In this document: piece after piece, positions 1,760 through 63,492 of the stretch
Numbering within the stretch: the stretch's first letter is position 1
Layout of the letters: each line of letters begins with the position of its first letter
From: Wickerhamiella versatilis
Taxonomy: Eukaryota
Length of the DNA: 64,000 nt
Assembly: GCA_030867685.1 (NCBI GenBank)
Contig: JAQOWU010000007.1
Location: 1-64,000, forward strand
Direction of reading: 5' to 3'
Program-made: the position numbers and the translations under genes
The notes under the pieces: model-generated
What the model was told of the DNA's origin: nothing
Database searches by the model: none
What the model saw: the letters and a program-made list of their open reading frames with translations, nothing else

Positions 1760-1899
1760 TCTTGCATTGTCCAACCAGTCTCAGGTAGTGAAGTGGGCTA
1801 TCTTGCATTGTCCAACCAGTCTCAGGTAGTGAAGTGGGCTATCTGCATTGTCCAACCAGTCTCAGGTAGTGAAGTGGGCTATCTTGCATTGTCCAACCA
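1760..1899 (+). repeat. Tandem array, ~3.4 copies of 41-bp unit TCTTGCATTGTCCAACCAGTCTCAGGTAGTGAAGTGGGCTA
   Basis: Units start at 1760, 1801, 1842 (1-bp deletion) and 1882; otherwise identical. Confidence 0.97.
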
Positions 1900-3328
1900 T
1901 ATGTGGAATGCAGAGTTGCTTGTCATTACTTCTCAGTTGATGCCCTAGTCCCTATTCTCTACCCATACTGATGAAAGTCAGCTGGATATATTCCATTTTA
2001 GCCTAATTGCTAAAGTCTGAGTTTCTGACCTATTCACAGTGCTCACTGTACCCACACATCATGACAACCAGTGATTCAAGAATACTTTTTTTTAAATCAT
2101 ATATGGGCCCCGCGGGTATCCTCCATCCGACATTGCATAATTTTTATTATTTATGCATAGTATCCTCCATCTGACATTACATAATTATCATGTATGCATA
2201 ATTCATGCAAACGGAACCTGCCCCTTAAACCTTACCCTTTATGAATACCCCCTAAGACTAGCAACATTGGTTCCTTTGGTCAAAAAGAATTCATGTTGGT
2301 GGACATAATTTTTCAAAAAGGGGTTTGCTACAATTCTGAACGGTTTAAAGTAGGTTCTATTCGGCCGACATTCCCCGCATCACTAATCAACACAAGGTGT
2401 GGGGCATGCCCATCATTTCGTTTACGACTATACGATCTATCTCCGACGTTATGGTCTAGGTTGACCCATGTCACTTAGCATAAATTAGTAGCATATACTC
2501 CTAATTTAGCACAGAGTACTGGCTCACTAGATGTAATAGAACCGGAAATTCTGGATGCTAAAAAGAGAAAACTATGTTCCAGGTGCCACGAATGATGAGT
2601 GCAAGAGAGCCTATAGATTAATAGGCCAACCTGCAGCATATTCCTCAAGTTAGACGTCACTTCACGGTGCCTGATTGGCTGACCACTTAGAACCCTAACT
2701 CCACACATAAGGTATTTACCAATATGAACAGCCAGAATAAGCAGTTAGTCACATGAAGAACCTGGTTGTCGACCCTTTGGCGATCGGATGTTCTTGATCG
2801 TTGCGAATGAAAAGCAATCACATAATAATCGTTTCAATCAGAACTGTCATATCTATTAGATAGGATCTAGCCCTCAATAACTCCAATATAGACCTGTTCC
2901 ACTTTGTGACAAGCCCCATCGGAAAAGAAAAATTGATTCAGCATGGGTAGGGGCTCAAAGCCTCTACGTGTCTACGTACGTGCCCCACCTTTTCTTTCGG
3001 GTAATATCTCTGAGAATATATATCGCGGCATCCTCTTCTGTGAAAATCCGGCCTGGAATATCCAACAAGAAGTATTCTTGTATTTAGGAGGGCACTGTGC
3101 TTGCTCCGCGGTGTGGTATGATTTACCCTATAAATAATTATTAAGAATAAAGTACATATGCCAACAGCGCCTCGATATCCTTGTAAAAGTCTAGGTACCA
3201 AAATGTTAATGGAATAATTAAGGAAATATGCAGCTTTGTTTTACCCACAAACTTCCAGTTGTAAAATATTTATGAGAAAAATAGCTCGGCTGGGATTGTG
3301 CATCTCTTTCCGACAGTTAAATATTTCG

Positions 3329-3353
3329 TACCTGAGACTGGTTGGACAATGCA
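3329..3353 (-). repeat. Dispersed 41-bp repeat fragment
   Basis: TACCTGAGACTGGTTGGACAATGCA, exact reverse complement of part of the unit. Confidence 0.93.
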
Positions 3354-3489
3354 TGTAGAGATTTCATGCAATGCATTATTACAAAACATCGGCCACAGCA
3401 ATCTGCAGGACCCCACTGGAATGCGCATCCTAGCCGCATCACATTAAATTCAGACGGTTACCCATCGGTGGGCTACTATTTTGGTAAGA

Positions 3490-5586
3490 ATGAAGGCCTT
3501 CCTAACGCTACAAGCTGTAATTCAGTTAGTAGCATGCCAAGATGCGTCTAGCAGCTCGTACTCGCTAGCGTCGTCGACCATTCAATTCACGAGTCCAACT
3601 AGCTCTGATGTAGTTGCTCCTACTGCTACCTCAAGTTGTCAGTGTGAAAATGAAGGGATTTTTGGCGAAATCATTGATAGCCTGGAGAAAGCGGTAGATG
3701 CTGCGGTTAACGCTTTTAAGTCAGGCATTAATGTGTTCGACCTTCCCGACCACATCAACTCACTTCAATCAGTATTCAATGACCTTGCCGAAATATCCGG
3801 TAACATTGACTGCATCAGTTATAACAGTCAGGCCAAATTCTTGAATGCTATTTCCCAGTTACTGGAAATTGACCATCAACTCTTAGAGGGTCTTAATAGC
3901 TTGGGAGTTGTTCAGGTGATCACTCCACTTTTACCAGGTCTGAATATAATAACCGAAGGAATATCGAGTACCATTATTCAGGTTGGCGGTGGACTCTCGC
4001 GTCATCCCTGCTGTGTGTTGTGGGAGGAGGTAAACGCATCTTCAGATTATATCAACGATGTCAACAAGATTATTGACGGGATCAACGAGATACTGCCGCT
4101 TGCTAAGTTGAAGCACATCTCTGGGTTCCATCTTACGGTATCATCAGGTGACTGCTCTACATCCTCCACTTCCTATATCGGCGCTGGGTCGAGTGCAGGC
4201 CTCTCAACTTTTTCGCAAGTGAGCTCTGGATTTACCAGCATAAAGTCCAATAGTCCACCTACTCCTTCGACGGTTGCATCAGTCCATTCTTCAGAAAGCA
4301 TGACCCTGCCACTTTCGTCTTTGAAGCCACGACCCTCTGCATCCATCAGCAGCAGTATGCAGTCAACTGATGTAGGAGTTTCCACCGCGGACACCTCGAG
4401 TACAGGCTCTGTCAATCACGGTGAGGGGGATGCAACCAAAAGCTTGACTACTGCTGGTACATCTACAACACATTCTTCTGGCAAATTTGGGTCTAGTAAA
4501 GACTCAATTGCCAATAGTGGATCTGTGACTATGAGTTCCTCTAGGAGTAGTGGATCATCTTCTGGATCTGGTACTGGGTCTGGATCGTTGATACCGGGAC
4601 CTTCTACCATTACTACTTCGCGACAAGCCCCAGGCTGGACCTCCAAAGTAAGTCCGTCACTCGCTTCGACCAATACAGTAAATTCAGCATCAGTCAGTTC
4701 TAATCTTGCCACCGATGGGGGGTCGAGTGCTACGGGTGCTTCTACTACTGGTACAGAATCAGGTGCTACGGGAACAATTCCCACTAGTTCAGGTGCGATT
4801 ATTACCGGATCAAGTGGTAGAGGTACTAGTACTCCCGTTAAAGAATCGGGTGTCGCTAGTTCTGGTGCAATTAATACTGATTCAAGTGTATCTGGTGCTA
4901 GCGCTACGGGTACTGGTGCTACAGGTACTGGTAAAGGTGCTAACTCTACCGTAACGGCAGGCACGACCTACTTTACGACATACTGTCCATCGCCAACTAC
5001 CTTCACCTATGGTTCTTCCACTTACACTGTGACAAAAGAAACTACGATGTCTATAGAGGAGTGCGATTGTACCGAGAGTAAGAGTGAGGAAAATAATTCA
5101 GTGATTTTGGGCTCTACAAAGACAGCAGAAGCTACTGTCTTCACCACTTACTGTCCTTCACCCACTACTTTCACCCACGGCTCATCTACGTACACTGTTT
5201 CTGGACCCACATCTTTAACAATTGGACAAAGTACATCCGTAACTCCGACTGCTGCTCCGACTGCTGCTCCGACTGCTGCAACCAGTGTACCAACCGCCAA
5301 AACCAACTCTGCTCCACATGCTGCTGCTTCTGCAAGGCCCTCTGAATCTAATGAATCCGTGCTTCCTGATGTTTCAAGTGTAACTACTGCGGCACCGTCT
5401 CAAACTTACAGTGAGTCTAGTCCTATTGCTGCTTCAAGTAGTGCACCTGCCGCAGTCTCTGAATCTCCTAGTTCTGTTGGCACTGCAACAAGTGCCAGTG
5501 CACCAGCTATTGCAAATACTGCAGAGAAGACGAGTCCGCACAGTGCACTTCTGCTAGGTGTGGCTGCTGGGATTCTGCTACTTTAG
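3490..5586 (+). CDS. GPI-anchored Ser/Thr-rich cell wall protein with Sed1/Spi1-like Cys repeats
   Basis: First ATG at 3490 (MKAFLTLQAVIQLVAC signal peptide); Ser/Thr-rich stalk; two TTYCPSPTTFT.GSSTYTV motifs; hydrophobic C-terminal GPI signal. Confidence 0.88.
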   Translation: MKAFLTLQAVIQLVACQDASSSSYSLASSTIQFTSPTSSDVVAPTATSSCQCENEGIFGEIIDSLEKAVDAAVNAFKSGINVFDLPDHINSLQSVFNDLAEISGNIDCISYNSQAKFLNAISQLLEIDHQLLEGLNSLGVVQVITPLLPGLNIITEGISSTIIQVGGGLSRHPCCVLWEEVNASSDYINDVNKIIDGINEILPLAKLKHISGFHLTVSSGDCSTSSTSYIGAGSSAGLSTFSQVSSGFTSIKSNSPPTPSTVASVHSSESMTLPLSSLKPRPSASISSSMQSTDVGVSTADTSSTGSVNHGEGDATKSLTTAGTSTTHSSGKFGSSKDSIANSGSVTMSSSRSSGSSSGSGTGSGSLIPGPSTITTSRQAPGWTSKVSPSLASTNTVNSASVSSNLATDGGSSATGASTTGTESGATGTIPTSSGAIITGSSGRGTSTPVKESGVASSGAINTDSSVSGASATGTGATGTGKGANSTVTAGTTYFTTYCPSPTTFTYGSSTYTVTKETTMSIEECDCTESKSEENNSVILGSTKTAEATVFTTYCPSPTTFTHGSSTYTVSGPTSLTIGQSTSVTPTAAPTAAPTAATSVPTAKTNSAPHAAASARPSESNESVLPDVSSVTTAAPSQTYSESSPIAASSSAPAAVSESPSSVGTATSASAPAIANTAEKTSPHSALLLGVAAGILLL

Positions 5587-5689
5587 ATTTTTTTTTGTCA
5601 CATGTTTTAATTTTGCTAGCCTCATACCTAAGAAATTTGATATCCTTGGTTTAATAAATTACTTTTTTTTGTTGCTTCTTGGAACACAG

Positions 5690-5864
5690 TCAGGTAGTGG
5701 AGTGGGCTATCTTGCATTGTTATGCTCTACGATGGGGGCTCTATAACACTTCCAATTAACAAAAGGGGGGTGGTATCATATATAACCAACAGTGCAATAA
5801 AAATATTTTTATTATTACAAGCCTTAGGCAGTAAAGCGGGTTATCTTGCATTGTCCAACCAGTC
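5690..5864 (+). repeat. Two dispersed 41-bp repeat fragments (5690-5720; 5826-5864)
   Basis: TCAGGTAGTGGAGTGGGCTATCTTGCATTGT and AGGCAGTAAAGCGGGTTATCTTGCATTGTCCAACCAGTCT. Confidence 0.92.
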
Positions 5865-6115
5865 TTATAGTCTTCTCTCAGTAGCAGTCGCCTATGCGGA
5901 GCATATCGATTCAGGGCATCTCAATGCGAGCTGTTCCTCTGTACTTGTTACAAGGATAGTAATAGCTATCAATGCATATTATTTGTCCACATCCGGGAGA
6001 GCGGGCTATCTGTCCGCTAGCTCCGTGAAGTAAATATGATATATATATCTGGGCTGTGAGCACAGTAGATACCACAAGATTTGATCAAGATACCATGATT
6101 CCTTTCAGTGACATT

Positions 6116-7231
6116 CTATTGCAAATATGGATAGTCAATATATCCTTTAGCGCCGCCAGTGTAAAAGGTAGCTTTGTCAGGAGCATTTCGTTTCGGCCGC
6201 TTTTCACGAAATCGCCGCACAAGATCCGGATTAGCCAGGAGCGGTACTCCAATAGCAACAGCATCTACCGCACCACTGTCAACTATTGCCTCTGATTCCT
6301 CCTGCTCGAATCCTCCATTGCTAATCACAGCGCCATGCGTGAAGTGCTCTTTCACTACAGAAGTAATGTCACGCTTGTCCGTTGCATCTATAATATCACG
6401 GCGCTCCACATGAACATATGCGATCTTACGCTCATTTAACTGCTGGCAAATATAAGCAGTATCCGCTATGGGAGACTCATAATTTGCATTGTTGTAAGTA
6501 ACTAATGGTGATATGCGGATACCAGTGCGATCTGCGCCCACCTCAGCTATGACTGCGTCAACCACATCTAGCAGGAACCGTGCTCGTGTCTTGATTGTTG
6601 CGCCGCTATAGTAGCCCGAGGCACGCTTGTTGGCCTGAGGCACCAAAAATTGATTGATCAAGTAGCCGTTCGCACCATGGATCTCAACACCATCAAACCC
6701 AGCGGTCTTGACAGCCCGAGACGCGCCACTTGCGAACATTCTCAAGACATCTCTTGCTTCCTCGTCTGACAATACGCGAGGAACCTCTATCTGCTCCCAC
6801 TTCCCTGTGTCGCGGTTGTGGTAGCGCCATGTCGTTGAAACTGCACTAGGTCCTATAGGGATTTGTCCATCATTAATCGATGCTGGTGCAGTTCGTCCTG
6901 TATGCATCAGTTGGTTGAAAATTTTCCCGCCTGCCTCGTGAATGCTGTTAGTTACTTTGTACCAGCCACGAGCTTGGTTGTCGTTGTAGATACCAGGTTC
7001 TCCATATAACACACTAGTATCCGGTGCTACCAAAGTAGCCTCCGTGATGATCAGACCCACGGTTGCTCGCTGAGTGTAGTACTGTACCATCATATCGGTG
7101 GGAACCTGCGTTGAAGGGTCGTCACTCCTAGCACGTGCCATCGGAGCCATTACAATTCGATTTGCAATGAAGGTGCATCCTAGTTGCAGTGGTGTGTAGA
7201 GCTTGCTTGAATTTGATGCTTGGAATGACAT
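6116..7231 (-). CDS. Old yellow enzyme / NemA-like NADH:flavin oxidoreductase
   Basis: NRIVMAPMARAR, GLIITEAT, AGFDGVEIHGANGYLINQFL and TFYTGGAKGYIDYP motifs; first ATG at 7231 (ORF-track start 7261 is GTG). Confidence 0.93.
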   Translation of the reverse strand: MSFQASNSSKLYTPLQLGCTFIANRIVMAPMARARSDDPSTQVPTDMMVQYYTQRATVGLIITEATLVAPDTSVLYGEPGIYNDNQARGWYKVTNSIHEAGGKIFNQLMHTGRTAPASINDGQIPIGPSAVSTTWRYHNRDTGKWEQIEVPRVLSDEEARDVLRMFASGASRAVKTAGFDGVEIHGANGYLINQFLVPQANKRASGYYSGATIKTRARFLLDVVDAVIAEVGADRTGIRISPLVTYNNANYESPIADTAYICQQLNERKIAYVHVERRDIIDATDKRDITSVVKEHFTHGAVISNGGFEQEESEAIVDSGAVDAVAIGVPLLANPDLVRRFREKRPKRNAPDKATFYTGGAKGYIDYPYLQ

Positions 7232-7551
7232 TGTGTGTTGCTCCAGATAATGGTTCACCACTCAGTAAGCACAAATACAATGTTAGTCGTGTGATGCTTC
7301 ATCTGATTACGTAATATATTAAGCTCCCAAATGATTTCATGAAAGCCTCCTTGTACGCTTCAAATGATTTTGCACCGAGCTAATTGAATCAGCGTTGTCA
7401 CATAGAGATCTTTACAACTACTAGACTATTATATATTAAACGATATATTCGAGTAATATGGATGTAGGGCATAGTTATACCTCGAAATGGCCTCTAGGTT
7501 CCAATTACTTATGTAGCTTAATTAGCCTATATTCCATCATTGTCTGGTTGG

Positions 7552-7578
7552 AGTGGGCTTTCTTGCATTATCCAACCA
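7552..7578 (+). repeat. Dispersed 41-bp repeat fragment
   Basis: AGTGGGCTTTCTTGCATTATCCAACCA. Confidence 0.88.
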
Positions 7579-7623
7579 TGGATCAGATGTCAGCTCCTTT
7601 AACTATATATTGTCTAAGAAAAA

Positions 7624-9006
7624 CTACTTCACAATAGTAGTGTTTGGGAGATGAATCGTCCCAAATGGTGTTTTTGTACCATTGAGTGCCTTTATTTTTT
7701 CTACAGTATCTTTCCCAATCGCATCATATACCCTGGGATCTTGCAGGGTCAATATATCTGTTGCGGCAGTTCCACATTTTACTTTCGGCGTCTCCTTGTG
7801 AAAGAGTTGCTGCAGGAACAGCATACTAGGAATAATACCTTGAATATCAGTCAGGATATGTTCTCCGATTGGATAGACTTGGAATTGGATGTCAGCTCCG
7901 TCCTCGCACCTTTCTCCAACATATTGTCTTACTGGCTCGTAAGGTATAACCTCATCATTTTCTCCATGATAAATCATTCGCGGGAACTTTGGAGTGCTCA
8001 CACCAATGCTGCTCACATTATTTAAGAGACTTTCTTTTCCAAATACTTCCTGTGTTGATGGCACGTCAAGAAGACTATCATAAGGCGATCCCGATATCAC
8101 TTTATCGGTAAAACTTTGAGAGCCATAAGTAAACAATAAGTCATATGCACACTTATCTGGATTCTTGGCAAATTTTACAGCATCCTTTAAAAATTGATTA
8201 CCGTATTTTTGGATCACTGAATTGTTAAAATCTGGGTAAATAGACGCAACTCCAGCCATTCCTCCCACAGCAAAACCTGAAAAAATCGTATTTTGCAAAT
8301 GATTTATAGTTGTTTCCAAGTCCACAGGTGTGCCGCCGTGTACAGCCCCTATTATATTAAGGTCCGGTGCATACGACTCCGCAAGCTGCGACATCCAAAC
8401 TGTTGAGTGACCAGCACCGCTATAGCCGTAAAGTGCGACTTCAGTATCTGAAGGTAGTCCCAATTGGTCCAATCCAGCCCTAATCCCATCCAGACCCGCT
8501 TTCCCTTCCTCATGGCCCACGACGAATCCCGAGTTGGGTCCTTCAATGTCGGATATCACGACATACCAGCCCTGAGCCAAGGCCCATGCTACAAAAATTG
8601 GTACATCCCAAATAACATCGACGTTATTTGAAGAGAATAGACCTTTCACTAGACCATAGCTCGGCGCACAATCAAGGTTGGCCGCATTTTCAAACATTTG
8701 AAACGATAATACCTTCTGTGGATACGAAGTGACTGCACTTGAAAGGGGCTTGAATGTCGTTACTACTGAAAAAGATGGGTCGTTTAACGTGCTATTGGTC
8801 CTGTACATCGATTGAGTAGCCCCACCACTTTCTATGAGTTGTGGATTCACATATACATCGCGTGAACGTATTATTTCTCCCAGTCCGTAGCTCGTTAGGT
8901 TACCTGGATCAGAGTAAAATGGGTCTTCCAAAGGGGTTTGTGAAACATATACGGGGGACCCCAGGACACCTAGAAGAAGGCATATAGTAGCTGCTAGAGT
9001 CCACAT
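7624..9006 (-). CDS. Secreted lipase, LIP/CalA (lipase A)-like family
   Basis: Signal peptide; LDCAPSY, LDGIRA, GYSGAG nucleophile, HGGTPVD, PKFPR..YHGENDEVIP and YPIGEH. Confidence 0.93.
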   Translation of the reverse strand: MWTLAATICLLLGVLGSPVYVSQTPLEDPFYSDPGNLTSYGLGEIIRSRDVYVNPQLIESGGATQSMYRTNSTLNDPSFSVVTTFKPLSSAVTSYPQKVLSFQMFENAANLDCAPSYGLVKGLFSSNNVDVIWDVPIFVAWALAQGWYVVISDIEGPNSGFVVGHEEGKAGLDGIRAGLDQLGLPSDTEVALYGYSGAGHSTVWMSQLAESYAPDLNIIGAVHGGTPVDLETTINHLQNTIFSGFAVGGMAGVASIYPDFNNSVIQKYGNQFLKDAVKFAKNPDKCAYDLLFTYGSQSFTDKVISGSPYDSLLDVPSTQEVFGKESLLNNVSSIGVSTPKFPRMIYHGENDEVIPYEPVRQYVGERCEDGADIQFQVYPIGEHILTDIQGIIPSMLFLQQLFHKETPKVKCGTAATDILTLQDPRVYDAIGKDTVEKIKALNGTKTPFGTIHLPNTTIVK

Positions 9007-9232
9007 TATCTTGGGTGGTAAGTTTCGCCGGATTAGGGAATTAAAACTATTGGCCGGTGGGTATGGTTAGGGTAGGGTTAGGGTTTTACATCCGGATCTC
9101 ACTAAGAGATGAAGTATTCGCGGATTCACCTCCGATTAACAATATCTGAATAGTATAGCTCAAATTTTTAGGAATTAAATTTCTTATAAAGTGGTAGTTA
9201 ATATCTAACTTGGCTTCTCACGAAAATACGCA

Positions 9233-9257
9233 AGTTAGTTAGTTAGTTAGTTAGTTA
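9233..9257 (+). repeat. (AGTT)6 microsatellite
   Basis: AGTTAGTTAGTTAGTTAGTTAGTTA. Confidence 0.9.
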
Positions 9258-9671
9258 TGCTTGCATAATCATCTCGTCAACGTCGATAACTCCCGATGCC
9301 TTTCGTGATGATCTACATCGCCCTCAGCCCGCTATAGTAAAGTGGACTTATTTGGCCAAGCTTCTTATTTTTGGATATCTGTGGTACATTTGAGGCACCT
9401 CGATATCTTCATGAATACACCTGGACTGCCTGTTGTGCATTTACTATGACATTCTGTTGTGTTATATATATGCAAAAGTTCACCTACCAAATGTTATTGT
9501 TCTATACAATTCTGGGCTCGAGCAAATTAGTGATAAGTTACCGGATAAATAAAAAAAATTAGATCCGCATTGAAAGGTGCGGTAAATCATGTTTTCAAAT
9601 GCATTTTGATAAAGATGTTTTGTCTACAGTCTAGAGCAGCAATTAATATCTAACATACCGCTGAAGGTGAT

Positions 9672-10727
9672 TTAGCTATCCGTCCTCCACTTGCTCACCG
9701 AACCATCGCCACTGAGGTAGAAAAAGCTTGAATCATCGATTGCCGTTAGCCCGTTCCATGGTGATGAGGCACCTGCAGCAGTCACCATTGTGCCTTCATC
9801 CCAAGAGTTACCATCTGTAGGCCTATGAATTAGGCGTCCTTCAAGATTACTATAATCGAAATTACCTTGGTCTCGGTTGCAGAAGAAGCTTACTATAAAG
9901 TTACTTCCCACTTTGACTATCTGAGGGGCACCCACTTTGTAACCATCTGCTGGGTCGAGTACATGTTGACGAGTTCCCCATGTTTGTCCTCCATCTGTTG
10001 ACTCAACAGACCCTATATAAGTGTCATCCCCATTTAGAGATTCAAAAACAGCTATTAGGTGCTGGTTATCATCATACTGAGCAACTCCAATCATACCATC
10101 CCGGCGGTTTCCTTCGCCGTCACGCTCGGGATCGCAGACAGTTATGGGATCAGACCAAGTCTTTCCATTGTCACTGGATGTCCTCATGTAATTCTTCTGT
10201 AGATTATTATTGAGTTCATGGGAATAAAAGAGCTGGATAGTCTTACCATCTGGTGCAGTCCTCAGGAAAGGCTCCCAGTTACCATTTTGAACCCCGTTAT
10301 TCTTGTTCACAACAGGATCAGCCAGCCATGACCATTGTCTACCGTTGTACTGGCTAATCGTGATCCTCCACACCTTGTTTGGGTCCCCGTCCTGGCCATG
10401 ATTGCGGTAGGCGACTATGTACGTGCCGTCAGGGCGTTCGTAGGGAAACCCATTGGAAATATCCTGTGTTTTTGCGTCACCAGACACAACTCTTCCCGAA
10501 GGTGTCCAGGAGCTTCCATCCGAAGAATGAAACGCTTGTATGTTTGTGCTTCCAAGAGTACCTAGGAACGTGCTGTCGTCAAGCTTCGTTACTCGAGGGT
10601 AATCACCATTGCCAATACGGCCATTAAAGGATGAGTCCTGAGCCAAATCTCGACGTTGAAGAGTAATAGGATGACTGGTGGTCGAATCAAGGACCGGAAT
10701 AAGTGATATCAGGTTTATCAATTTCAT
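9672..10727 (-). CDS. Secreted BNR/Asp-box beta-propeller glycoside hydrolase (GH93 exo-arabinanase-like)
   Basis: Signal peptide; YPR, SSDGSSWT, WEPFL, FYSHE, SSDNGKTWS, RDGM, AVFES, STDGGQTW and GAPQI motifs typical of fungal GH93/BNR proteins. Confidence 0.82.
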   Translation of the reverse strand: MKLINLISLIPVLDSTTSHPITLQRRDLAQDSSFNGRIGNGDYPRVTKLDDSTFLGTLGSTNIQAFHSSDGSSWTPSGRVVSGDAKTQDISNGFPYERPDGTYIVAYRNHGQDGDPNKVWRITISQYNGRQWSWLADPVVNKNNGVQNGNWEPFLRTAPDGKTIQLFYSHELNNNLQKNYMRTSSDNGKTWSDPITVCDPERDGEGNRRDGMIGVAQYDDNQHLIAVFESLNGDDTYIGSVESTDGGQTWGTRQHVLDPADGYKVGAPQIVKVGSNFIVSFFCNRDQGNFDYSNLEGRLIHRPTDGNSWDEGTMVTAAGASSPWNGLTAIDDSSFFYLSGDGSVSKWRTDS

Positions 10728-10906
10728 TGACGGATCTGAGTAGCAAAAAAAAGCTTATATGTGTATCTACATAAATAAAAAGTGAACTAATCATATGTAT
10801 GTGGAGTAGGGTCTCCTATAAACTGCATAATAGTAATGCCACAAGCTATAAAGAAAAGATCCAGCTGTTTCGAAAAAATTAAATTAGACTAAGTATTGCA
10901 TGTAGA

Positions 10907-10943
10907 AAGTGGGCTTTCTTGCGTTGTCCAACCAGTCTCAGGT
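10907..10943 (+). repeat. Dispersed 41-bp repeat fragment
   Basis: AAGTGGGCTTTCTTGCGTTGTCCAACCAGTCTCAGGT. Confidence 0.93.
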
Positions 10944-11663
10944 TGACGGTTAGGAGCAAAGGTCTGGTGTGCAAGCAGTAGGAAGAGGTTCAGGGTTATG
11001 TAGGCTTGGACACTCGTCGACCCGCTCGCAACTCATCAACGATAGCGTCGGGTTTTGGAGATCATAGGTAGAATAATAGAAATTTTACGACGATATTAGT
11101 CCTTTCAAGATAGTTTTTTGGCCACTCCTGAGAGTATTACTAGGCCCTTGTCTACTAACATGCATGGGGCTTATAGGTTCGGCGGGACGAAGCGAACCGG
11201 CTATTTTGGAGAGACATATAATATGTATCAGCATATCTAGAACAAATTCGATTACTTATACTTCTTCAGGGCTCCATTATTAGGTTTCTAGATATTAAAT
11301 AACGGTACATAGTCCAGCGCCATGCGATAAAACTGCATATAGTGATATTACCCCGACTATACTTACCCAGTTACCCTAGCCCATGTAATGATTAAGGTGC
11401 TCGAGAGACATCGGTATTCTTACATAAAGCGGCTTGTTAGCTGCAGGAATATCGCATAGTCGAACCAAAACGTACACTCGATGTAGTTAATAGCTGGAAT
11501 CTGATGAAAGCAAGTGCTCTAAATCTCAACTTCGTAGTACTATATCTCCATGGCTTTCTGGCTACTAGTCGATGTTGAAAAAGGATGGAAAGCATGGTTA
11601 GTGTATATAGAATTTCTTTTCGGTCCACCTACTCGGCTTCTGGAGTGCTATGGTTTCCTGCTA

Positions 11664-12608
11664 CTAGCTGGACATGAATGGAGCTCCTAGTTGCCTTACA
11701 ACGTCTGCGGCTGGTAGAATTTCATGAATGGCCCCCACACCCTCATCAACCATGACATTGCCATGGCCTTTAGAAAGGTCGCCAATGAGCATTCCATAGT
11801 AGTCACTGCCAGGAATCGTGTCTGGTACGTAGCCGTCATTCCGTTGCACAATACGGCATTCGTTCCCATGCTTCCCCACTTCAATCATATCTTCGGATCG
11901 CGCCTTCACCATGATTTCCTTGACATTATCAGCAGTGGGAGACTCTAACGTGGCAATAAAGCGTGTACCAGCATACACACCCTCTGCACCAAGTGCCCGC
12001 ATCGCATCTGCTGTCTTTGTCGAGACAATGCTTCCAGCAGCGAGCACAGGGATGCTGAGCACATCCGTAATTTGTGGAACAAGAACCAGCGTAGATATAT
12101 GATGTCGAGGTAGACTTCCACCCTCCTCAAACCCTGTCACGACGTATGCATCTATACCCTCCTGCTCAGCCAGGAGTGCTTGCTCGACGGTCGGGCTTAT
12201 ATCTCGGTATAGTACCTTAATACCTGCATCATGGCACCTACTAATGTATGGAATCGCAATATCTAGGTTGAAACTGACCATTGCAGCCACTGGTACACCC
12301 TCTTCGATCATCACTCCGAGAGTAGAGTCTGTGAAATCACTATTGATGAAACCCCCCACTGGTGGTATCAAATTCACAGCAAAGGGTTTTGAAGTGAGTT
12401 GCTTCGTCTTTTGAACCTCTTTGCGTAGCGCATCTCTGAATTCCTTCATGTTTTTCGGTGCTGTACGCTGACCTGCGTGCGGACCCAACACACCCAATCC
12501 ACCTGCCTCACTTACTGAAGCGACTAATTCTGCGCTTGTGTTCCAGAATAGAGGTGCCTGCACGACTGGATACTCGATGCCAAATAAAGACTCAATACGT
12601 TTTCCCAT
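11664..12608 (-). CDS. Nitronate monooxygenase / FabK-like flavoprotein (bacterial type)
   Basis: YPVVQAP, AELVASVSEAGGLGVLG, KPFAVNL, VVTGFEEGG, LVLVPQITD...IPVLAAG and ALGAEGVYAGTRFIAT. Confidence 0.9.
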   Translation of the reverse strand: MGKRIESLFGIEYPVVQAPLFWNTSAELVASVSEAGGLGVLGPHAGQRTAPKNMKEFRDALRKEVQKTKQLTSKPFAVNLIPPVGGFINSDFTDSTLGVMIEEGVPVAAMVSFNLDIAIPYISRCHDAGIKVLYRDISPTVEQALLAEQEGIDAYVVTGFEEGGSLPRHHISTLVLVPQITDVLSIPVLAAGSIVSTKTADAMRALGAEGVYAGTRFIATLESPTADNVKEIMVKARSEDMIEVGKHGNECRIVQRNDGYVPDTIPGSDYYGMLIGDLSKGHGNVMVDEGVGAIHEILPAADVVRQLGAPFMSS

Positions 12609-55300: not shown

Positions 55301-55724
55301 CTCCAGTGAATTCATATATTCCAGAAACAGGGGGCACGTAGTACCCTGTAAGGTTTAATGAGATGTTATTGTTCACTGGAACAGGGACACCATATATTTC
55401 ATGTTGACCATCATTAAATCCGAAATTAAACGACACGGGTGGTCCTCCATCTCCTGCAACGTTAGAAGCTTTAGCTTGCTTACCGTCGATTTCGTAAGGG
55501 CCATAGAAAGTAAAATTGGTCCTGACATCGTTCAATTTATAATCGTCAGAAGCATCTCCCCATTGCCATTTCCAGTAATCAACGTTGAATCCTGAGCGTC
55601 CAGTAGAAGTAGGATTGGGACAACCCCATACGCTTTGTGCAGTCGCTGTTTCTGTGGGCGTTGCCTGTGCCTGGGCAACCGAGGCTAACACAGCACACAC
55701 CAGTCCGCAAGAAAAACTTCTCAT
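52302..55724 (-). CDS. GPI-anchored adhesin/flocculin with PA14/GLEYA lectin domain and tandem repeats
   Basis: Signal peptide MRSFSCGLVCAVLASVAQA; LTGYYVPPVSGIYEF, ADD and YLEAGRWYPVQIAFINN; Thr-rich repeats; Ser-rich stalk; GPI tail. Confidence 0.93.
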   Translation of the reverse strand: MRSFSCGLVCAVLASVAQAQATPTETATAQSVWGCPNPTSTGRSGFNVDYWKWQWGDASDDYKLNDVRTNFTFYGPYEIDGKQAKASNVAGDGGPPVSFNFGFNDGQHEIYGVPVPVNNNISLNLTGYYVPPVSGIYEFTGDADDTMSFRIGSTLSDYCCGDVSNVIDDNFILYLSTCGVNGCADSPGVDPTKNVAEASVYLEAGRWYPVQIAFINNLYGMTLTVKQKTPGSNKYEELSNIYQKLEGGDDLCTISTAIPWSGTVATTVTGIETIATNTHTYIVPEVTVETPKSLPGETTTVPWSGTVATTVTGEETITKYGHTYTVPQVTVETPTSLPGDTTTAPWSGTVATTVTGEETITTNDHTYTVPQVTVETPTSLPGETTTVPWSGTVATTINGSKTITTDDHTYTVPQVTVETPTSLPGETTTVPWSGTVATTINESKTITTDDHTYTVPQVTVETPTSLPGETTTVPWSGTVATTINGSKTITTDDHTYTVPAVTVETPTSLPGETTTVPWSGTVATTINGSKTITTNDHTYTVPQVTVETPTSLPGETTTVPWSGTVATTINGSKTITTDDHTYTVPQVTVETPTSLPGETTTVPWSGTVATTINGSKTITTDDHTYTVPQVTVETPTSLPGETTTVPWSGTVATTINGSKTITTDDNTYTIPAVTVETPTSLPGETTTVPWSGTVATTINGSKTITTDDNTYTIPAVTVETPTSLPGETTTVPWSGTVATTINGSKTITTDDHTYTVPQVTVETPTTFPGAATTIPWSGTAATTVTGEETITTNDHTYTVPQVTVETPTTLPGETTTVPWSGTVATTINGSKTITTDDHTYTVPQVTVETPASTVSESTATSPASSKNALSSSRVKTSTSSISGSSTKSSSTSKSAQPKLVKSSTSSQLPKQASSTSGSLGASQSTSISQPALTPSSFAGWNISSRFVSPGISASIVPDTSSVVVSSSATAGSSSSSSSDIGIFSSAFQPISISSITVAESSSLSSITPSPSIVTPSSGPSISSESLSDINPTSVRGSVTFTETNGGTRESSSAVPTTTKLSSTATVPEQDGFETSSDNGGSKTLKSSTGAVRPTTVPLQSASSSPESQPSETSLAVANAACRKTPFGALGVIVTFFLVVF
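53170..54965 (-). repeat. Intragenic tandem repeat, ~14 x 129 bp (43 aa)
   Basis: Unit PGETTTVPWSGTVATTINGSKTITTDDHTYTVPQVTVETPTSL; CCACTCCAAG recurs at 53521 and 53650. Confidence 0.95.
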
Positions 55725-55871
55725 TTGACCGATGCGGAGTGTTTCTTCATCCCAAGGAGAAGGTCCGCGACTTTTAAAAGGTGCCATGACATCTTGCGGC
55801 AAGGTTATACACGCTTAGCATTCCAATACGGTTTTAGGGTTAGTCGCACGGGACCTACCTACCCTAACCTT

Positions 55872-55901
55872 GACTAGTTGGACAGCGCAAGATAGCCCAC
55901 T
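55872..55901 (-). repeat. Dispersed 41-bp repeat fragment
   Basis: GACTAGTTGGACAGCGCAAGATAGCCCACT. Confidence 0.87.
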
Positions 55902-57960: not shown

Positions 57961-57994
57961 AGTGAAGTGGGCTATCTTGCATTGTCCAACCAGT
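57961..57994 (+). repeat. Dispersed 41-bp repeat fragment
   Basis: AGTGAAGTGGGCTATCTTGCATTGTCCAACCAGT, exact match to the unit. Confidence 0.95.
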
Positions 57995-59485: not shown

Positions 59486-59514
59486 AAGTGGGCTATCTTG
59501 CATTGTACAACCAG
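59486..59514 (+). repeat. Dispersed 41-bp repeat fragment
   Basis: AAGTGGGCTATCTTGCATTGTACAACCAG. Confidence 0.92.
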
Positions 59515-59569: not shown

Positions 59570-60175
59570 ATGGATTTGTCGGCGATCGTCGAGGGGTTCT
59601 CTTATCGCAATGAAGGGGGGCTCAATAGCCCTGACAGGGCAGAAGAATTGATGACAAGTATGAGAAGAATTGAACACCAACTCGCGTCTTATTTACTTTC
59701 AAGAGAGCAGAATCTTGGTATGGACGTTAGGCATTTCCCTTCACGTTCGAATATAGCGCCATTTACTAGGCGTTCTGAGGTAATACCTGAAGAATCCTCT
59801 AATAAAGACATAATATACAGCACGATCAATGGTGGTGAGGAGCCTAGCAGTACTCTACTACCAGGATCAATCGAGAGAGAAATCATATGTCTACCTGATA
59901 ATGAGAAAATGGAACTGGTAAAAACCTTGAGTATGTCCAGGATCCGCACGAATGGACATGCTATCTGTGTCATATGTCATCGAGAGTTCAGGAAAAGATA
60001 TGATCTTTTGAGGCACTTATGTATTCATCTTGATTTGCGCCCTTACAGATGTAAAATCTGTGCAAAACGTTTCGTGCAGAAGGGGGCGGCTATGGTGCAC
60101 ATGAAGACTCACGTACGCCAACAAGTTCGAAGTTCCATGCATAATGCATGGCTCACTTTAGACAGAAGTAAGTGA
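59570..60175 (+). CDS. C2H2 zinc-finger protein (two fingers)
   Basis: CVICHREFRKRYDLLRHLCIH-LDLRPY-RCKICAKRFVQKGAAMVHMKTH; first ATG at 59570. Confidence 0.88.
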   Translation: MDLSAIVEGFSYRNEGGLNSPDRAEELMTSMRRIEHQLASYLLSREQNLGMDVRHFPSRSNIAPFTRRSEVIPEESSNKDIIYSTINGGEEPSSTLLPGSIEREIICLPDNEKMELVKTLSMSRIRTNGHAICVICHREFRKRYDLLRHLCIHLDLRPYRCKICAKRFVQKGAAMVHMKTHVRQQVRSSMHNAWLTLDRSK

Positions 60176-60960: not shown

Positions 60961-61087
60961 AAGTGGGCTATCTTCCAATGCCTAACCATGAGGGGCTGAG
61001 ATATACACCTCATGTCATTAGTTTGTTTTCCATCCCTACCTAGATACAAATAAATATGAGTGGGCTATCTTGTACTGTACAACCAGT
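60961..61087 (+). repeat. Two 41-bp repeat fragments (60961-60988; 61059-61087)
   Basis: AAGTGGGCTATCTTCCAATGCCTAACCA; AGTGGGCTATCTTGTACTGTACAACCAGT. Confidence 0.85.
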
Positions 61088-61112
61088 TGAAGAAGTGATG
61101 CACTTTTCACCA

Positions 61113-62357
61113 TTAGCTGTTGTGATACTGATTGAATAGTCTCTTCCCCCCTCCAAGGATGGGAAGTAGATCATAAAGTAGACATTCATGGTACTCCAGC
61201 TGAAACTTATCACGGTTCTTCTCACACTGGCACCGGCATCCAACCCCATTCACTCTTACTGAATCAGGAACCATGCCGTCTTCGTTAAGTAAAGTGATTT
61301 GTCTATTTGGTGCGTTTCCAGGACAAAGTCCGAGTGTTGAGTGCGAATATCCAATGTCACGGAAGTAATGTATCTGACTCGCATTCAGCATCATAGCAAC
61401 CGCGAGTGTATGTACGGGTGCATCTCCCCAGCGCTCTCTCCAGAAGCCCCCAGCTTCATCCAAACTCCTGAAATACTCAGCATATAAGGGATTGTCCCAC
61501 AAGTCTACCCGGGCGATCTCAAAATTTGACCAGAAATGGCACATATTGAACACTTCATTCCCCATCGGCTCACTAAATTCTGGATTAGAATCTTTTCTGG
61601 CATCCTGGGTACATAATGCAACCGTCTCCCACAAATCCGTCTCAGGGAGATTCCAAGTTCTCTTGAATGCCTGTGCATACCGAAAAAGACTTTCCACAGT
61701 GTTTCTTCTTTCGCGTATAAATGCATTGAATCCATACCATTTGTCATGACGCTCCATTTCAGTAAAGACATCATAGGTTGTATCACAAAGATATTGAACA
61801 TCCGGTTCAACTCTCCAGTACCACCTATATTTCGAAACGAGCGGATGCTTGAAGAAAAAGCCGCTGAAAAAACGACACATTTGGTGGTAAGACTTCTGGT
61901 CTCCATATTTTACATTGTGTTTAGCTTGATATGCTAGCGCCTCTGTAATCCAACTCTCATCAATCTCTCTGGGAAATTCCCAATGCTCTGCAGGAATGAC
62001 CCCAAATTCGCATTTAGATTCGGTCTCCTGTTGTATGCGATAGATAAACTCCTCTGTAAAAGGCTCATCATTTAGAAAAGTCCACGGGTAATGAAACCAA
62101 TGGTTGAAATGAACTTCCATTGATCTCACACTCTGAATTATCCCTTCAAGATCTGAGTTACGAGACAGGACAAGAAGAGTTGCGTTTGCACGCGGTCCTG
62201 ACACATCGGGCTCGCGGCAGCCCACCACAAAAGGTTCATCCCACTTCCCACCCATGCCCGGATGTCTCCATATCCACAACCTATATGCATAAATTCCACA
62301 AAAAGCTACAGTCATAAACAAGAGCAGTTCCAAACAACTTCGTTTCCGCCATCTCAT
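61113..62357 (-). CDS. GT15 (KRE2/KTR family) alpha-1,2-mannosyltransferase, Ktr5/7-like
   Basis: Type II anchor; YPWTFLNDEPF, SYHQMCRFFSG, YWRVEPD, CHFWSNFEIA and ERWGDAPVH. Confidence 0.94.
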   Translation of the reverse strand: MRWRKRSCLELLLFMTVAFCGIYAYRLWIWRHPGMGGKWDEPFVVGCREPDVSGPRANATLLVLSRNSDLEGIIQSVRSMEVHFNHWFHYPWTFLNDEPFTEEFIYRIQQETESKCEFGVIPAEHWEFPREIDESWITEALAYQAKHNVKYGDQKSYHQMCRFFSGFFFKHPLVSKYRWYWRVEPDVQYLCDTTYDVFTEMERHDKWYGFNAFIRERRNTVESLFRYAQAFKRTWNLPETDLWETVALCTQDARKDSNPEFSEPMGNEVFNMCHFWSNFEIARVDLWDNPLYAEYFRSLDEAGGFWRERWGDAPVHTLAVAMMLNASQIHYFRDIGYSHSTLGLCPGNAPNRQITLLNEDGMVPDSVRVNGVGCRCQCEKNRDKFQLEYHECLLYDLLPILGGGKRLFNQYHNS

Positions 62358-63195
62358 TCGCAAATAGTGTTACTAATCATTGCAAATTCTACCGACTACT
62401 TCTCCAAGCATTTGACACTTTGCCCTCTGAGAAGAAGGCTGAATTCACAATTACGGCAGTTTCTGCTTCATATTCTTGACAGTGATATAAGTTAGATTCT
62501 TCAATAGCCATAGCTGAGTTCCGTGACCTCATTTGTCCTTGAAACAGCCGCTAATCAGGTGCTACATGTAATATATTAAGTTACTGTAAGTGGCGCAACT
62601 TCAACTGCTAAAGTGGAAATGATATCCTTTATACTATTTTTGGTGCTTGGGCATACTAGGCGACAATACTATATACTGCATAGAAAATGCCTTGGCTTTT
62701 AATCCTTTGAATTTAGCGAATTGTCGAATGTCGCAAGCGTGACAGCTCAGAAATTATATTTCCAGTGAAATAGCAAATGATTTGGGGGTGCTTTGTTTGA
62801 TTTCGAAAGCTTATACAGAAACATCAACTTAGTCCTGACGCAATTATGGCTTAAATATTTTCCCTGGCTCGAACACTTCTACAAACATACGTACCCCGGG
62901 GGACGGTAAACCACCCGAGTAGTCATCCACTCACCCTTAGTATGAGGAAAGCGGCAGCGGCAGCGGCAGAGAGTCAAGCGCTGAACCCCCAATCAATTTT
63001 GGCTCAGGTTTTCATGAGAGCGTCTACTTTTCTCACGCGGCTTTGATCGCAGATATGAATTTTATCTTGAAAAGTCGACACAACTATCGTGAAAAGTATA
63101 TGGCCTGCAAATTATTCTTGCGGTAGTGTTAGCGTACCAGTATTTGGAGAAATTTTGCCTCGGTCTGGGGTCGATTAGCGAGAGCAAAAGGGTTC

Positions 63196-63492
63196 GACAA
63201 TGCAAGATATCTCTTAGTAATCCGGCGAGTAAGAATGGTCAGGTAACCTGGGAATAAGAGGAGTTCTTTCTCCGTAATAAATTTTTTTGGCATCAATAAC
63301 AATATCTTATCTTCTTAGTTACCTTTCAGCATTTATACTTACTTGTTTACCAATACCATAATCATATATCACATTCATTGCGTTACCTTCTCCCCCGTGG
63401 TGTCGTAGGTTCCTTGATCCCTCTGCCGCAACCACTATCGAGATTTTGGGCTATCTTGCGACTAAAGTGGCTATCTTGCATTGTCCAGCCAG
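63196..63492. repeat. 41-bp repeat fragments (63196-63209 minus; 63448-63459 and 63465-63492 plus)
   Basis: GACAATGCAAGATA; GGGCTATCTTGC; AAGTGGCTATCTTGCATTGTCCAGCCAG. Confidence 0.85.

Follow-up and report, generated by a model that had tools for sequence, protein, structure and literature searches.

Why do pieces of one 41-nt repeat lie between unrelated genes over about 60 kb beside the end of a yeast contig? In the window, the 64,000-nt stretch of Wickerhamiella versatilis DNA analyzed here, the initial annotation had described an integron-like array of gene cassettes, and had explained it either by growth of the chromosome end through capture of DNA at telomere-repeat stubs or by a recombination site at which cassettes are inserted and shuffled.

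The 41-nt unit at the contig start

A clean plus-strand tandem array with a period of 41 nt, 3.4 copies and 98% matches was identified at 1760-1899 using Tandem Repeats Finder. Its right, centromere-side end lies at unit position 18, in the same register as the dispersed fragments. Allowing up to 3 mismatches, the complete 41-mer was found six times, three times within the array and at 13078, 15182 and 16789, versus 0 in 100 shuffles. G-richness was not clear on either strand. The unit is putatively the chromosome-end (telomere-type) repeat of this yeast.

The array does not begin at the first base of the contig, as had been assumed, since bases 1 to approximately 1140 are a noisy inverted duplicate of approximately 1140-2276. 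The arm pairs of this fold-back (67-95/2248-2276, 194-219/2109-2134, 681-714/1559-1592 and 746-763/1508-1525) are 76-94% complementary with all centers near 1135-1171, and 509-763 matched 1780-1508 at 73%. The fold-back is most likely a long-read assembly artifact. Adjoining its center, a draft-quality plus-strand run of about six unit copies was found at 1194-1460 by periodicity (period 37 at 86% in 1327-1414) and by blast (76-93% identity to the clean array), and this run is probably a terminal (telomere-type) array. Between the two arrays lies an AT-rich element (1461-1759) that occurs at several loci in isolates. Its summed depth in isolate contigs was 117.6 at 1657 and 283.9 at 1664 versus around 25-29 for single-copy sequence, a ratio of around 4-11, and the joints 7578>1634 and 14729>1634 give it other left neighbors. 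These features suggest a chromosome-end element common to several ends. Isolate contigs carry seven extra single letters relative to the window at 1532-1593, indicating that the window is unpolished here. The position of the unit run next to the fold-back center supports placement of the array at the physical chromosome end; since the contig start is a noisy draft-quality fold-back, this placement is only likely.

Fragments of the unit and the genes between them

The window was searched using blastn-short with the tripled unit as the query, which gave 54 merged hits. Counting matches of at least 28 bits (at least 14 nt) beyond 2 kb, 30 fragments were obtained versus approximately 0.02 expected by chance (arithmetic estimate). 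Another 13 or so matches of 10-13 nt were close to the chance level of approximately 6, and with this reservation the earlier figure of about 40 fragments is fair. The fragments derive from the repeat that forms the arrays beside the contig end. Of the 30, 23 are plus-strand and 7 minus-strand (binomial vs 0.5, one-sided p ~0.003), which agrees with the earlier estimate of three quarters in array orientation. From 5690 to 33385 all 13 fragments are on the plus strand, so that the uniform run reported for 5.7-26 kb was confirmed and goes past 26 kb.

The fragment nearest the array covers unit positions 4-28 (3329-3353, minus strand, 25 nt, 100%). The plus-strand run then comprises a 31-nt fragment of unit positions 22-41 plus 1-11 (5690-5720), a 24-nt fragment at 5842-5865 (core copy 5835-5862, 2 mismatches), a 28-nt core copy with both ends sharp (7552-7578), and a rightward extended core copy of 37 nt with a sharp left end (10907-10943). 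Longer copies follow, including a full unit of 43 nt (13076-13118, 41-mer with 2 mismatches), 46 nt starting at unit position 5 (15186-15231), 56 nt running from unit position 5 to 41 and then to 19 (16793-16848, 98%), and 52 nt from unit position 7 to 17-19 (19815-19866, 92%). A rightward extended core copy of 31 nt (18576-18606, 100%) runs into the final 5 nt of an orphan ORF. The run is completed by two 23-nt core fragments, one 6 nt ahead of the first ATG of the carrier ORF (22378-22400) and one with a sharp left end (23729-23751), a 28-nt core copy with both ends sharp in a 3'-3' spacer (25945-25970), and a degenerate full unit of 41 nt (33385-33425, 88%).

Farther from the contig start, fragments of 15 nt (38338-38352, minus) and 16 nt (39603-39618, plus) lie at the end of a 95-nt direct repeat and within its second copy, respectively; this direct repeat (38251-38341 and 39536-39629, 83% identical) holds the motif. 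A 14-nt plus-strand fragment of the spacer part of the unit lies at 44829-44842. Near 50 kb there are a minus-strand 28-nt core copy with 1 mismatch and both ends sharp (49882-49909) and core fragments of 19 nt (50116-50134, minus, left end sharp) and 15 nt (50524-50538, plus). One spacer holds a 25-nt exact core copy with a sharp right end (52035-52059, plus), a 19-nt core fragment (52138-52156, plus) and a 24-nt core copy in the opposite orientation to these two (52187-52210, minus). A minus-strand core copy with 3 mismatches and both ends sharp (55872-55901) lies 87 nt upstream of the adhesin ATG, and a 34-nt plus-strand copy at 57961-57994, 58 kb from the contig start, is perfect with 0 core mismatches. 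The remaining fragments are 28-nt core copies with both ends sharp at 59486-59514 (plus, 1 mismatch) and 61059-61087 (plus, 3 mismatches), a core fragment at 60961-60974 (plus; core copy 60962-60989, 5 mismatches, both ends sharp), a 19-nt core fragment at 63191-63209 (minus), and a 24-nt core copy with a sharp right end at 63469-63492 (plus).

Most fragments correspond to one discrete 28-nt core consisting of unit positions 33-41 plus 1-19. The 30 fragments cover unit positions 1-17 with 25-30 copies and positions 33-41 with 17-28, versus 8-13 at positions 20-31. Among 25 core copies, the left end fell at unit position 33 in 12 copies, 15 ended on the right at position 19, and seven had both ends sharp. 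A less common class of about 52-56 nt has its centromere-side end at position 18-19, as in the 3.4-unit array. This common register indicates that the fragments are not random pieces. Near-perfect copies at 49881, 52032, 57966 and 59487 have unrelated flanks; their ends are thus original rather than produced by decay.

All but one of the 30 fragments lie wholly outside the 25 CDSs used for placement, the exception being the overlap with the orphan ORF, and all 25 core copies are noncoding, with 51% of the window coding (0.49^25 ~2e-8), in line with the earlier statement that fragments avoid intact genes. Eight of the 25 core copies lie in convergent 3'-3' spacers, and consequently the motif is not a promoter element. 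Core pieces were found at most module boundaries over about 60 kb regardless of gene direction, as had been proposed, and several spacers hold two to four copies, some of them inverted.

The genes were identified by a Pfam scan of 30 ORFs, which confirmed the annotated modules from the oxidoreductase through the beta-helix protein. A plus-strand ORF of 698 aa (3490-5586), which has short internal repeats, matches no Pfam family and was previously called a wall protein, is followed on the minus strand by an Old-yellow-enzyme type NADH:flavin oxidoreductase (6116-7231; PF00724, 9.7e-73), a secretory lipase of the LIP family (7624-9006; PF03583, 6.2e-50), a BNR-repeat protein previously assigned to GH93 (9672-10727; PF13088, 3.9e-11) and a nitronate monooxygenase (11664-12608; PF03060, 1.8e-47). 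Next are a beta-lactamase-fold esterase (13208-14410, plus; PF00144, 2.5e-54), a bacterial-type flavin reductase (15518-16075, minus; PF01613) and an ATO/Gpr1/Fun34 family transporter (17463-18296, plus; PF01184, 2.6e-68). Plus-strand genes encode a chagasin-family (I42) peptidase inhibitor (20157-20513; PF09394, 2.8e-18), a class I methyltransferase (20739-21587; Pfam), an ADP/ATP carrier paralogue (22406-23383) and a subtilase (S8) with an I9 propeptide (24189-25796). The nearest atlas clusters of the chagasin gene were bacterial, which is a lead only. A GH20 hexosaminidase with a Laminin_G_3 domain (26112-28271), a right-handed beta-helix protein (28920-30365) and an MFS transporter (33962-35527) lie on the minus strand. 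Beyond them are a GNAT acetyltransferase (37118-37663, plus), a Zn2Cys6 transcription factor (39651-41642, minus), a second MFS transporter (41842-43344, plus), a short-chain dehydrogenase (45127-46098, minus), a histidine acid phosphatase with an outlying GC3 of 0.68 (47628-49307, minus), a 312-aa ORF with no Pfam family (50743-51681, plus), a GLEYA/PA14 adhesin with 13.8 repeats of 129 nt (52302-55787, minus), a C2H2 zinc-finger protein (59570-60175, plus) and a KTR-type alpha-1,2-mannosyltransferase (61113-62357, minus; PF01793, 3.6e-95).

The claim of bacterial-type cargo holds for at least one gene. The flavin reductase had 112 matches, and the named ones were all bacterial, at 40-56% identity, with none fungal; by these matches it is a bacterial-type cargo gene. 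Its GC3 of 0.45 is host-like, yet the flanking repeat copies are 96-98% intact, so that these tags are either younger than the transfer or maintained.

The repeat is also found beyond the window. Loose ends before 1792-1794 were seen in 15, 12, 9 and 9 contigs in four runs (isolate and metagenome), which indicates that this left end recurs at many loci elsewhere. In a 10.2-Mb isolate, 252 of 4683 contigs matched a 20-kb stretch with seven copies of at least 30 nt plus the arrays, versus the thousands that an even spread would predict (arithmetic estimate); by this rough count from isolate contigs, the motif is not spread uniformly through the genome.

Origin of the fragments

We tentatively favor, at somewhat below even probability, the explanation that the dispersed pieces represent short interstitial tracts of telomere type, added in a fixed register where subtelomeric ends had broken and retained where blocks join. 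A subtelomeric chromosome end would break or erode, and an end-maintenance enzyme, most likely telomerase, would start at a preferred template register and add at most one round. The end, still uncapped, would then be joined to other DNA or copy it by end joining or break-induced replication, so that blocks with separate histories would end up divided by a tag oriented like the chromosome end. The tags may be kept similar by conversion against terminal arrays, by binding of telomere proteins, or by both. What is observed is that the tags match the array in sequence, share a fixed register and sharp ends, lie between genes, favor one orientation and occur at many loci, and that one cargo gene is of bacterial type; that the array is the true telomere, that telomerase made the tags, and that these mark junctions of separately acquired blocks, is what we infer. 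Of the capture of DNA at telomere-repeat stubs proposed earlier, the array-derived pieces at module borders in array orientation stand, and the random, eroded nature of the stubs does not, given the shared end positions of the core copies and the near-perfect copies as far in as 58 kb.

Several results count against this explanation. With a 41-nt template, one round should not halt at 28 nt; the stop needs an internal default start or pause, an assumption that is ad hoc. Neither strand is clearly G-rich, 7 of 30 copies are inverted, and spacers with two to four copies occur. No age gradient was found, with a perfect copy at 58 kb and 4-6 mismatches in copies at 22-26 kb, and neighboring copies shared variants no more often than by chance (p 0.43 and 0.14). 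The host-like GC3 of the flavin reductase gene beside largely intact tags also counts against it, as does the draft-quality fold-back at the contig start, which leaves the terminal place of the array no more than likely.

The absence of an age gradient would fit an alternative that we consider unlikely, in which the main role of the core is to bind a protein, such as a telomere-repeat-binding protein, and to act as a boundary, silencing or anchoring element; selection would keep it in subtelomeric spacers, its arrival being secondary. Conservation is seen in the core but not in the 13-nt spacer part of the unit (per-position identity 0.64-1.00 in the core vs 0.28-0.56 in the flanks), a profile that is biased because the copies were picked by their match to the core; furthermore, the shortest fragments all center on the same 15 nt or so, and all 25 core copies are noncoding. 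The subtelomeres of S. cerevisiae carry Tbf1 sites, which favors this alternative. So do telomere-like motifs that telomere proteins bind in subtelomeres and promoters; teloboxes are mentioned in one source (PMC8211666). However, selection accounts neither for the way in which a sharp-ended 28-nt site with unrelated flanks came to occupy some 30 spacers nor for the bias in orientation, and 28 fully conserved nucleotides are long for one site. Still less probable is a reading without telomerase, in which the unit would be a subtelomeric or dispersed micro-repeat: a minisatellite whose scattered seeds were distributed through ectopic conversion or by some small mobile element, with the terminal position an artifact of where the assembly stopped. 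The draft-quality fold-back, the presence of just 3.4 clean copies, the lack of clear G-richness and the motif within the 95-nt direct repeat favor it. Against it, the flanks are unrelated in nearly all copies, neither target duplications nor terminal inverted repeats were seen at the copies by eye, and 28 nt is shorter than any known mobile element. Moreover, a unit run of around 270-320 nt adjoins the fold-back center, as expected at a physical DNA end, the neighboring 1461-1759 element is multicopy with varied neighbors like a chromosome-end element, and a putative telomere motif of 43 nt is on record for the yeast Pichia norvegensis (PMC7857110), a precedent for long units.

The integron analogy did not hold as a mechanism, and cassettes inserted, excised and shuffled at the repeat by a dedicated recombinase encoded elsewhere are very improbable. 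A discrete site of fixed length and register at most module boundaries, its uniform orientation over 5.7-34 kb (13 of 13) and the mixed cargo with a bacterial-type gene would suit such a system. However, no recombinase, integrase or transposase was detected among the 30 ORFs of the window scanned with Pfam, in agreement with the initial annotation. Neither dyad symmetry nor a hairpin was found in the 41-nt unit, which formed poorer folds than its shuffled versions (z +1.2 and +2.0). The genes face both ways, six on the plus and six on the minus strand between 5.7 and 26 kb, as already noted for the cargo; some modules hold two or three genes, several spacers contain multiple and partly inverted copies, and the same sequence is tandemly arrayed at the contig end, unlike recombination sites.

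Comparison with known systems

Telomere-repeat tracts are known from the X-Y' and Y'-Y' junctions of S. cerevisiae and from the borders of human subtelomere duplicons. There, as here, degenerate telomere repeats in end orientation mark the borders of blocks that move among ends; the blocks, however, are multi-kb shared elements with tracts of variable length, whereas mostly single unrelated genes and a discrete 28-mer are found here. In bdelloid rotifers, foreign genes are interspersed with telomeric repeat stretches near chromosome ends. Subtelomeric telomere repeats beside horizontally acquired genes, read as traces of repeated end healing, are common to both cases, but the rotifer is an animal with a short repeat tied to telomere-associated retroelements, and no such retroelement was seen in the window. 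Bacterial integrons share the repeated discrete site between unrelated single-gene modules and the uniform orientation over a long stretch. In contrast to their attC-bounded cassettes and IntI, the window has no recombinase and no palindromic or folded site, its genes face both ways, several spacers contain more than one site, and the site doubles as the tandem repeat of the end.

In vertebrates, short interstitial telomeric sequences are described as insertions made by telomerase during double-strand-break repair (PMC2246262, PMC8537989, PMC7215372), the enzyme having acted on the broken end ahead of its rejoining. These tracts likewise consist of the telomere repeat of the organism itself, lie internally, are short and meet unrelated flanks at sharp junctions. 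Unlike them, the unit here is 41 nt, so that each tract spans part of a unit in fixed register, and the fragments occur about once per 2 kb in one chromosome-end domain with one orientation favored. In yeast, interstitial telomere sequences are described to stop break-induced replication and to seed telomeres (PMC7736798); this work and the telomerase-made tracts at repair sites (PMC2246262, PMC8537989) are precedents for the mechanism favored here. The yeast tracts were engineered from the short repeat of S. cerevisiae; by analogy, same-orientation internal tracts could let an end re-form at a module border after distal loss.

Wickerhamiella and Starmerella yeasts from food and flowers are described as having xenolog-rich chromosome "end" domains that are long and poorly expressed, with very few classified transposons (PMC13376923). 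The window resembles these domains, in which bacterial and other-fungal genes accumulate beside telomeres; the description of the domains in that source mentions no repeat between genes, whereas one is present here. If they arose as we favor, the tags could later act as short homologies or telomere seeds.

Repeat arrays at the contig end

At 1760–1899, Tandem Repeats Finder located 3.4 copies of the 41-nt unit (98% matches), and at 1327–1414 a second, poorer period of 37 nt. About six degraded copies of the unit lie at ~1194–1460, adjoining the center of a fold-back in which ~1–1140 is a noisy inverted copy of ~1140–2276, with low sequence quality. The four pairs of fold-back arms were 76–94% complementary and all had their centers at 1135–1171, and in the self-comparison 509–763 matched 1780–1508 at 73%. 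Since the isolate contigs have seven additional single letters relative to the window at 1532–1593, its first ~1.7 kb is unpolished long-read sequence. Single-base deletions relative to the isolate contigs occur up to ~1.6 kb, so that before 1760 neither the coordinates nor the copies of the unit are reliable. The fold-back at the contig start is most likely an assembly artefact, and a run of units next to its center is the pattern that reading through a physical end of the DNA would produce.

Between the two arrays, an element of 300 nt had summed depths of 117.6 and 283.9, compared with ~25–29 for single-copy sequence, and the isolate contigs join it to other left neighbors (joints 7578>1634 and 14729>1634). 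The bin 1335–2001 reached a depth of ~3002 in the sequencing runs X11 and X15, where single-copy bins have ~25–28; this value does not give a copy number, since contigs were possibly counted at each place they fit. The unit array is likely to be located at a chromosome end. The dispersed copies share the sequence of the arrays at 1194–1460 and 1760–1899, and these arrays, next to a fold-back of draft sequence, are likely to be the true telomere.

As a telomere repeat, the 41-nt unit would rank with the longest recorded for yeasts. In Saccharomycetaceae, a 28-bp unit has been termed one of the longest known (PMC8211666), and Pichia norvegensis has a putative 43-nt telomere motif (PMC7857110), so a unit of 41 nt is not out of range. 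The core of the putative Pichia kudriavzevii repeat, as given in the part of PMC6510891 covered, differs from the unit of the window. No Rfam family was matched within the window.

Distribution and register of the dispersed copies

With up to three mismatches, the 41-mer occurred six times in the window, compared with zero occurrences in 100 shuffles. The 25-nt core with up to three mismatches occurred 21 times (0 in 20 shuffles), and the 28-nt core, comprising unit positions 33–41 followed by 1–19, occurred 30 times with up to seven mismatches, 25 of them beyond 2 kb, with none in each of five shuffles. A blastn-short search with the tripled unit as the query returned 54 merged hits, including 30 fragments beyond 2 kb with at least 28 bits. 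A perfect 34-nt copy is located at 57961. The copies were also present in independent runs; for example, one X11 contig spans 5691–13105 and includes the copies at 7552 and 10907.

The initial annotation had described the fragments as lying outside the coding sequences and mostly in the orientation of the terminal array, and both statements held. The plus strand carries 23 of the 30 fragments and all 13 of those between 5690 and 33385, while the seven inverted copies are found at 3.3 kb and past 38 kb. Twenty-nine fragments are fully outside the 25 CDSs, the remaining one overlapping an orphan ORF by 5 nt, and all 25 core copies are noncoding in a window that is 51% coding. Core copies occupy promoter-side, tandem, and convergent spacers, with 8 of the 25 in 3′–3′ spacers. 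Their orientation tracks the chromosome end and not the genes, of which six are on the plus and six on the minus strand between 5.7 and 26 kb. Two to four copies share a spacer at 5.7, 16.8, 50, 52, 56–59.5, and 61 kb, with an inverted pair in the 52-kb spacer, and copy density does not drop across the 64 kb.

One inference of the initial annotation was that DNA had been captured at stubs of telomere repeat. The fragments are not random pieces of the array, being mostly one discrete 28-mer. Unit positions 1–17 were covered by 25–30 of the 30 fragments and positions 33–41 by 17–28, compared with only 8–13 at positions 20–31. Of the 25 core copies, 12 have their left end at position 33 (AGTGGGC...), five continue into the unit, seven lack the end of the core, and one is ambiguous. 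On the right, 15 end at position 19 (...CCAACCAG), four continue, and six lack the core end. Both ends are sharp in seven. The flanks of copies with zero to two mismatches (49881, 52032, 57966, and 59487) are related neither to the unit nor to one another, indicating that the copy ends are original and not products of decay. The four longer copies (3329, 15186, 16793, and 19815) begin at unit positions 4–7, and those at 16793 and 19815 reach the common right end at position 17–19, giving 52–56 nt. The inner end of the clean array is at unit position 18.

The same left end was observed in the isolate and metagenome runs, where loose contig ends "before" 1792–1794 were found in 15 contigs of X8, 12 of X9, nine of X11, and nine of X15. 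Their flanks differ among contigs, with a consensus agreement of ~0.45–0.62, and this left end is thus present at other places in the genome.

In the self-comparison, the only longer pair containing a divergent motif was one 95-nt direct repeat (38251–38341 and 39536–39629, 83% identical), which brackets ~1.2 kb without a long ORF and both copies of which end in a divergent core motif. Relatives have no counterpart of codons 1–25 of the ADP/ATP-carrier ORF (22406–22480), so the second Met is probably its true start, which would place the core copy ~80 nt upstream of the start and not 6 nt. A 203-nt tandem duplication (two copies, 74% matches) lies at 46013–46420, directly upstream of a short-chain dehydrogenase gene.

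Gene content and variation among isolates

The Pfam families agree with the gene families that the initial annotation had assigned to the modules. The window is yeast nuclear DNA with the standard code: CTG accounts for 126 of 10256 codons, as common as other codons for Leu, and in the ADP/ATP carrier it aligns with conserved Leu or Met. Since CTG is read as Leu, the host is not a CTG-clade yeast. Two protein searches returned no close relative with a name.

The flavin reductase (15518–16075) had one 99% match followed by 111 further hits. Its named hits were all bacterial (Novosphingobium, Nitrospirillum, Methylocystis, and others) with 40–56% identity, none being fungal, and its GC3 of 0.45 is host-like, making it a candidate for an old horizontal transfer. 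The protein atlas taxa were likewise bacterial, which by itself is no sign of transfer. A gene for a chagasin-family (I42) cysteine-peptidase inhibitor, a family unusual for budding yeast, is located at 20157–20513; its nearest protein-atlas clusters are bacterial, a lead only and no sign of transfer. The histidine acid phosphatase (47628–49307) has a GC3 of 0.68, compared with 0.37–0.45 in the other 22 ORFs measured, and this compositional outlier is either foreign or highly expressed. The GLEYA/PA14 adhesin gene (52302–55787) contains 13.8 tandem 129-nt (43-aa) repeats at 53175–54952, and the opposite strand carries a spurious 554-aa ORF.

The isolate contigs total 10.2 Mb, and window sequence was also present in runs labeled as food-fermentation metagenome. 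All run data were assembled contigs, and k-mer contigs break by construction at each copy of at least 31 nt; the contig ends at copies (5691, 13078/13105, 16819, and 19844) were therefore rejected as strain breakpoints. In X11, 252 of 4683 contigs (10.2 Mb) were placed anywhere on positions 1–20000, 115 of them fitting two places. This interval holds seven interstitial copies of at least 30 nt in addition to the arrays, and by simple arithmetic an even spread at that density would give several thousand such loci. Long copies would thus be at least ~18-fold concentrated here, as a rough estimate from contig counts under assumptions and not a map, and a count of this order would be expected with a domain of this kind at each of about ten chromosome ends. 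The exact 28-mer was not found in public metagenome contigs. One 20-mer match there (L001) was taken as chance, its contig having 36–38% GC and no other similarity.

The bin 17343–18009, covering the ATO module, had a depth of 0 in X9, X11, and X15, while X8 covers 17491–18605. Among the pieces listed, those of X11 and X15 end at 16819 and restart at 19020; among the joints listed none spans this gap, which is not evidence that the ATO module is absent. X11 differed from the window, among the pieces listed, by 49 of 7401 letters at 5691–13105 (0.7%) and by 47 of 3745 at 13078–16819 (1.3%), and at 19020–19844 an X11 and an X15 contig differed from it by 46 of 825 (5.6%). This sharp change in divergence between adjacent blocks hints at a mosaic history.

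Origin of the copies and its implications

The likeness to an integron suggested by the initial annotation is one of pattern only. An integron carries a tyrosine recombinase gene beside its array, whereas a Pfam scan of 30 window ORFs revealed no integrase, recombinase, or transposase family, bearing out the earlier observation that no recombinase is encoded here. The attC site is an imperfect inverted repeat that folds as a single strand, but the unit of the window has no dyad or hairpin: 54 nt of core plus spacer gave folding energies of −1.9 and −0.4 kcal/mol, in both cases weaker than those of shuffled sequence (z +1.2 and +2.0), and the only palindromic part, judged by eye, is a central TGCA. 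Integrons have one co-oriented site per cassette and co-oriented genes; the sites here are uniform (13 of 13 at 5.7–34 kb), but the genes run both ways, several spacers hold two to four copies, and the unit also forms arrays at the end. Homologies of 28–56 nt could nevertheless support exchange among ends by ordinary recombination. A miniature transposon, solo LTR, or other mobile-element footprint was rejected, as the flanks are unrelated and the 95-nt pair is the only longer shared sequence seen in the self-comparison to hold the motif; by eye, no target duplication of at least 3 nt was seen at the seven copies with both ends sharp. A promoter telobox or general-regulatory-factor site, which would be placed at promoter distance upstream of genes, was also rejected, since the copies are oriented by the chromosome end and since the 3′–3′ spacers that hold 8 of the 25 core copies have no promoter; the motif is therefore not a promoter element.

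The reading we favor is that the copies are interstitial telomere-type tracts left at broken subtelomeric ends. As expected of such tracts, internal junctions to unrelated DNA are abrupt (left end sharp in 12 and right end in 15 of the 25 core copies) and the tracts run head-to-tail with the array, in 23 of 30 cases overall and in all 13 in the distal 34 kb. A discrete tract of fixed register, oriented by the chromosome end and with abrupt junctions, is the product expected of templated end-addition. Telomerase would begin on a broken end at a preferred register and add no more than one round, after which the end would join, or copy, other DNA and leave a tag between the blocks. Telomerase-made interstitial tracts have been recorded at break-repair sites in vertebrates (PMC2246262, PMC8537989), and in yeast, interstitial telomere tracts halt break-induced replication and seed telomeres (PMC7736798).

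A weak point of the telomerase reading is that it offers no explanation for a stop after 28 nt of the 41-nt cycle. The lack of an age gradient among the copies also counts against it. On either side of a foreign gene that is old and compositionally adapted, the copies are 96–98% intact, so they are either younger than the transfer or maintained, and the sharing of variants between neighboring copies, which would serve as a clock for stepwise accretion, was not above chance (p 0.43 and 0.14). These weak points would be reconciled if the copies were maintained, either through conversion against the terminal arrays or through the binding of a telomere protein, and the need for maintenance shifts part of the weight to the main rival reading, in which the core is itself a site bound by a telomere protein.

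We consider it improbable, although worth stating, that chromosome ends grow and reshuffle by means of telomerase tags, through capture at tagged ends and tag-mediated exchange of modules among ends. Each break would receive a discrete tag of 28 nt (or ~56 nt) in fixed register, and the tagged, uncapped end would capture loose DNA, in many cases just one gene and at times a gene of bacteria. Tags in the same orientation would then serve as portable homology and as telomere-seed sites, by which all chromosome ends would lose, regain, and exchange single-gene modules. Such a system would function as an integron-like capture platform that needs no dedicated recombinase and runs on the machinery of end maintenance and repair.

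None of the papers searched contains any of six 13–14-nt pieces of the unit, and the literature searches gave no account of a motif like this one between the subtelomeric genes of a yeast. The unit may be listed among the telomere motifs in Supplementary Data 12 of PMC13376923 or supplementary table 1 of PMC7857110. Wickerhamiella and Starmerella have xenolog-rich "end" domains with few, unclassified transposons (PMC13376923); unlike in the window, no repeat between genes is mentioned for these domains in the text covered.

Subtelomeric interstitial telomere tracts are already known, and those described here are notable for their density, their fixed 28-nt register, and their link to single-gene modules. 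Yeasts use their subtelomeres to gain, lose, and diversify genes for their niche, some of them acquired horizontally, and to our knowledge the entry and movement of foreign single genes there are poorly known. With a 41-nt telomere unit, each telomerase or telomere-recombination event leaves a readable register tag, which is not possible with repeats of 6–8 nt. Tags that mark break, healing, and capture would make the genome a readable record of chromosome-end construction and would permit a direct test of whether telomerase takes part in gene capture. Were the 28-mer a bound site instead, telomere-protein sites would be densely arrayed from the end to at least 60 kb inward, with a bearing on the way in which long silent "end" domains are established. 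Either reading is directly testable.
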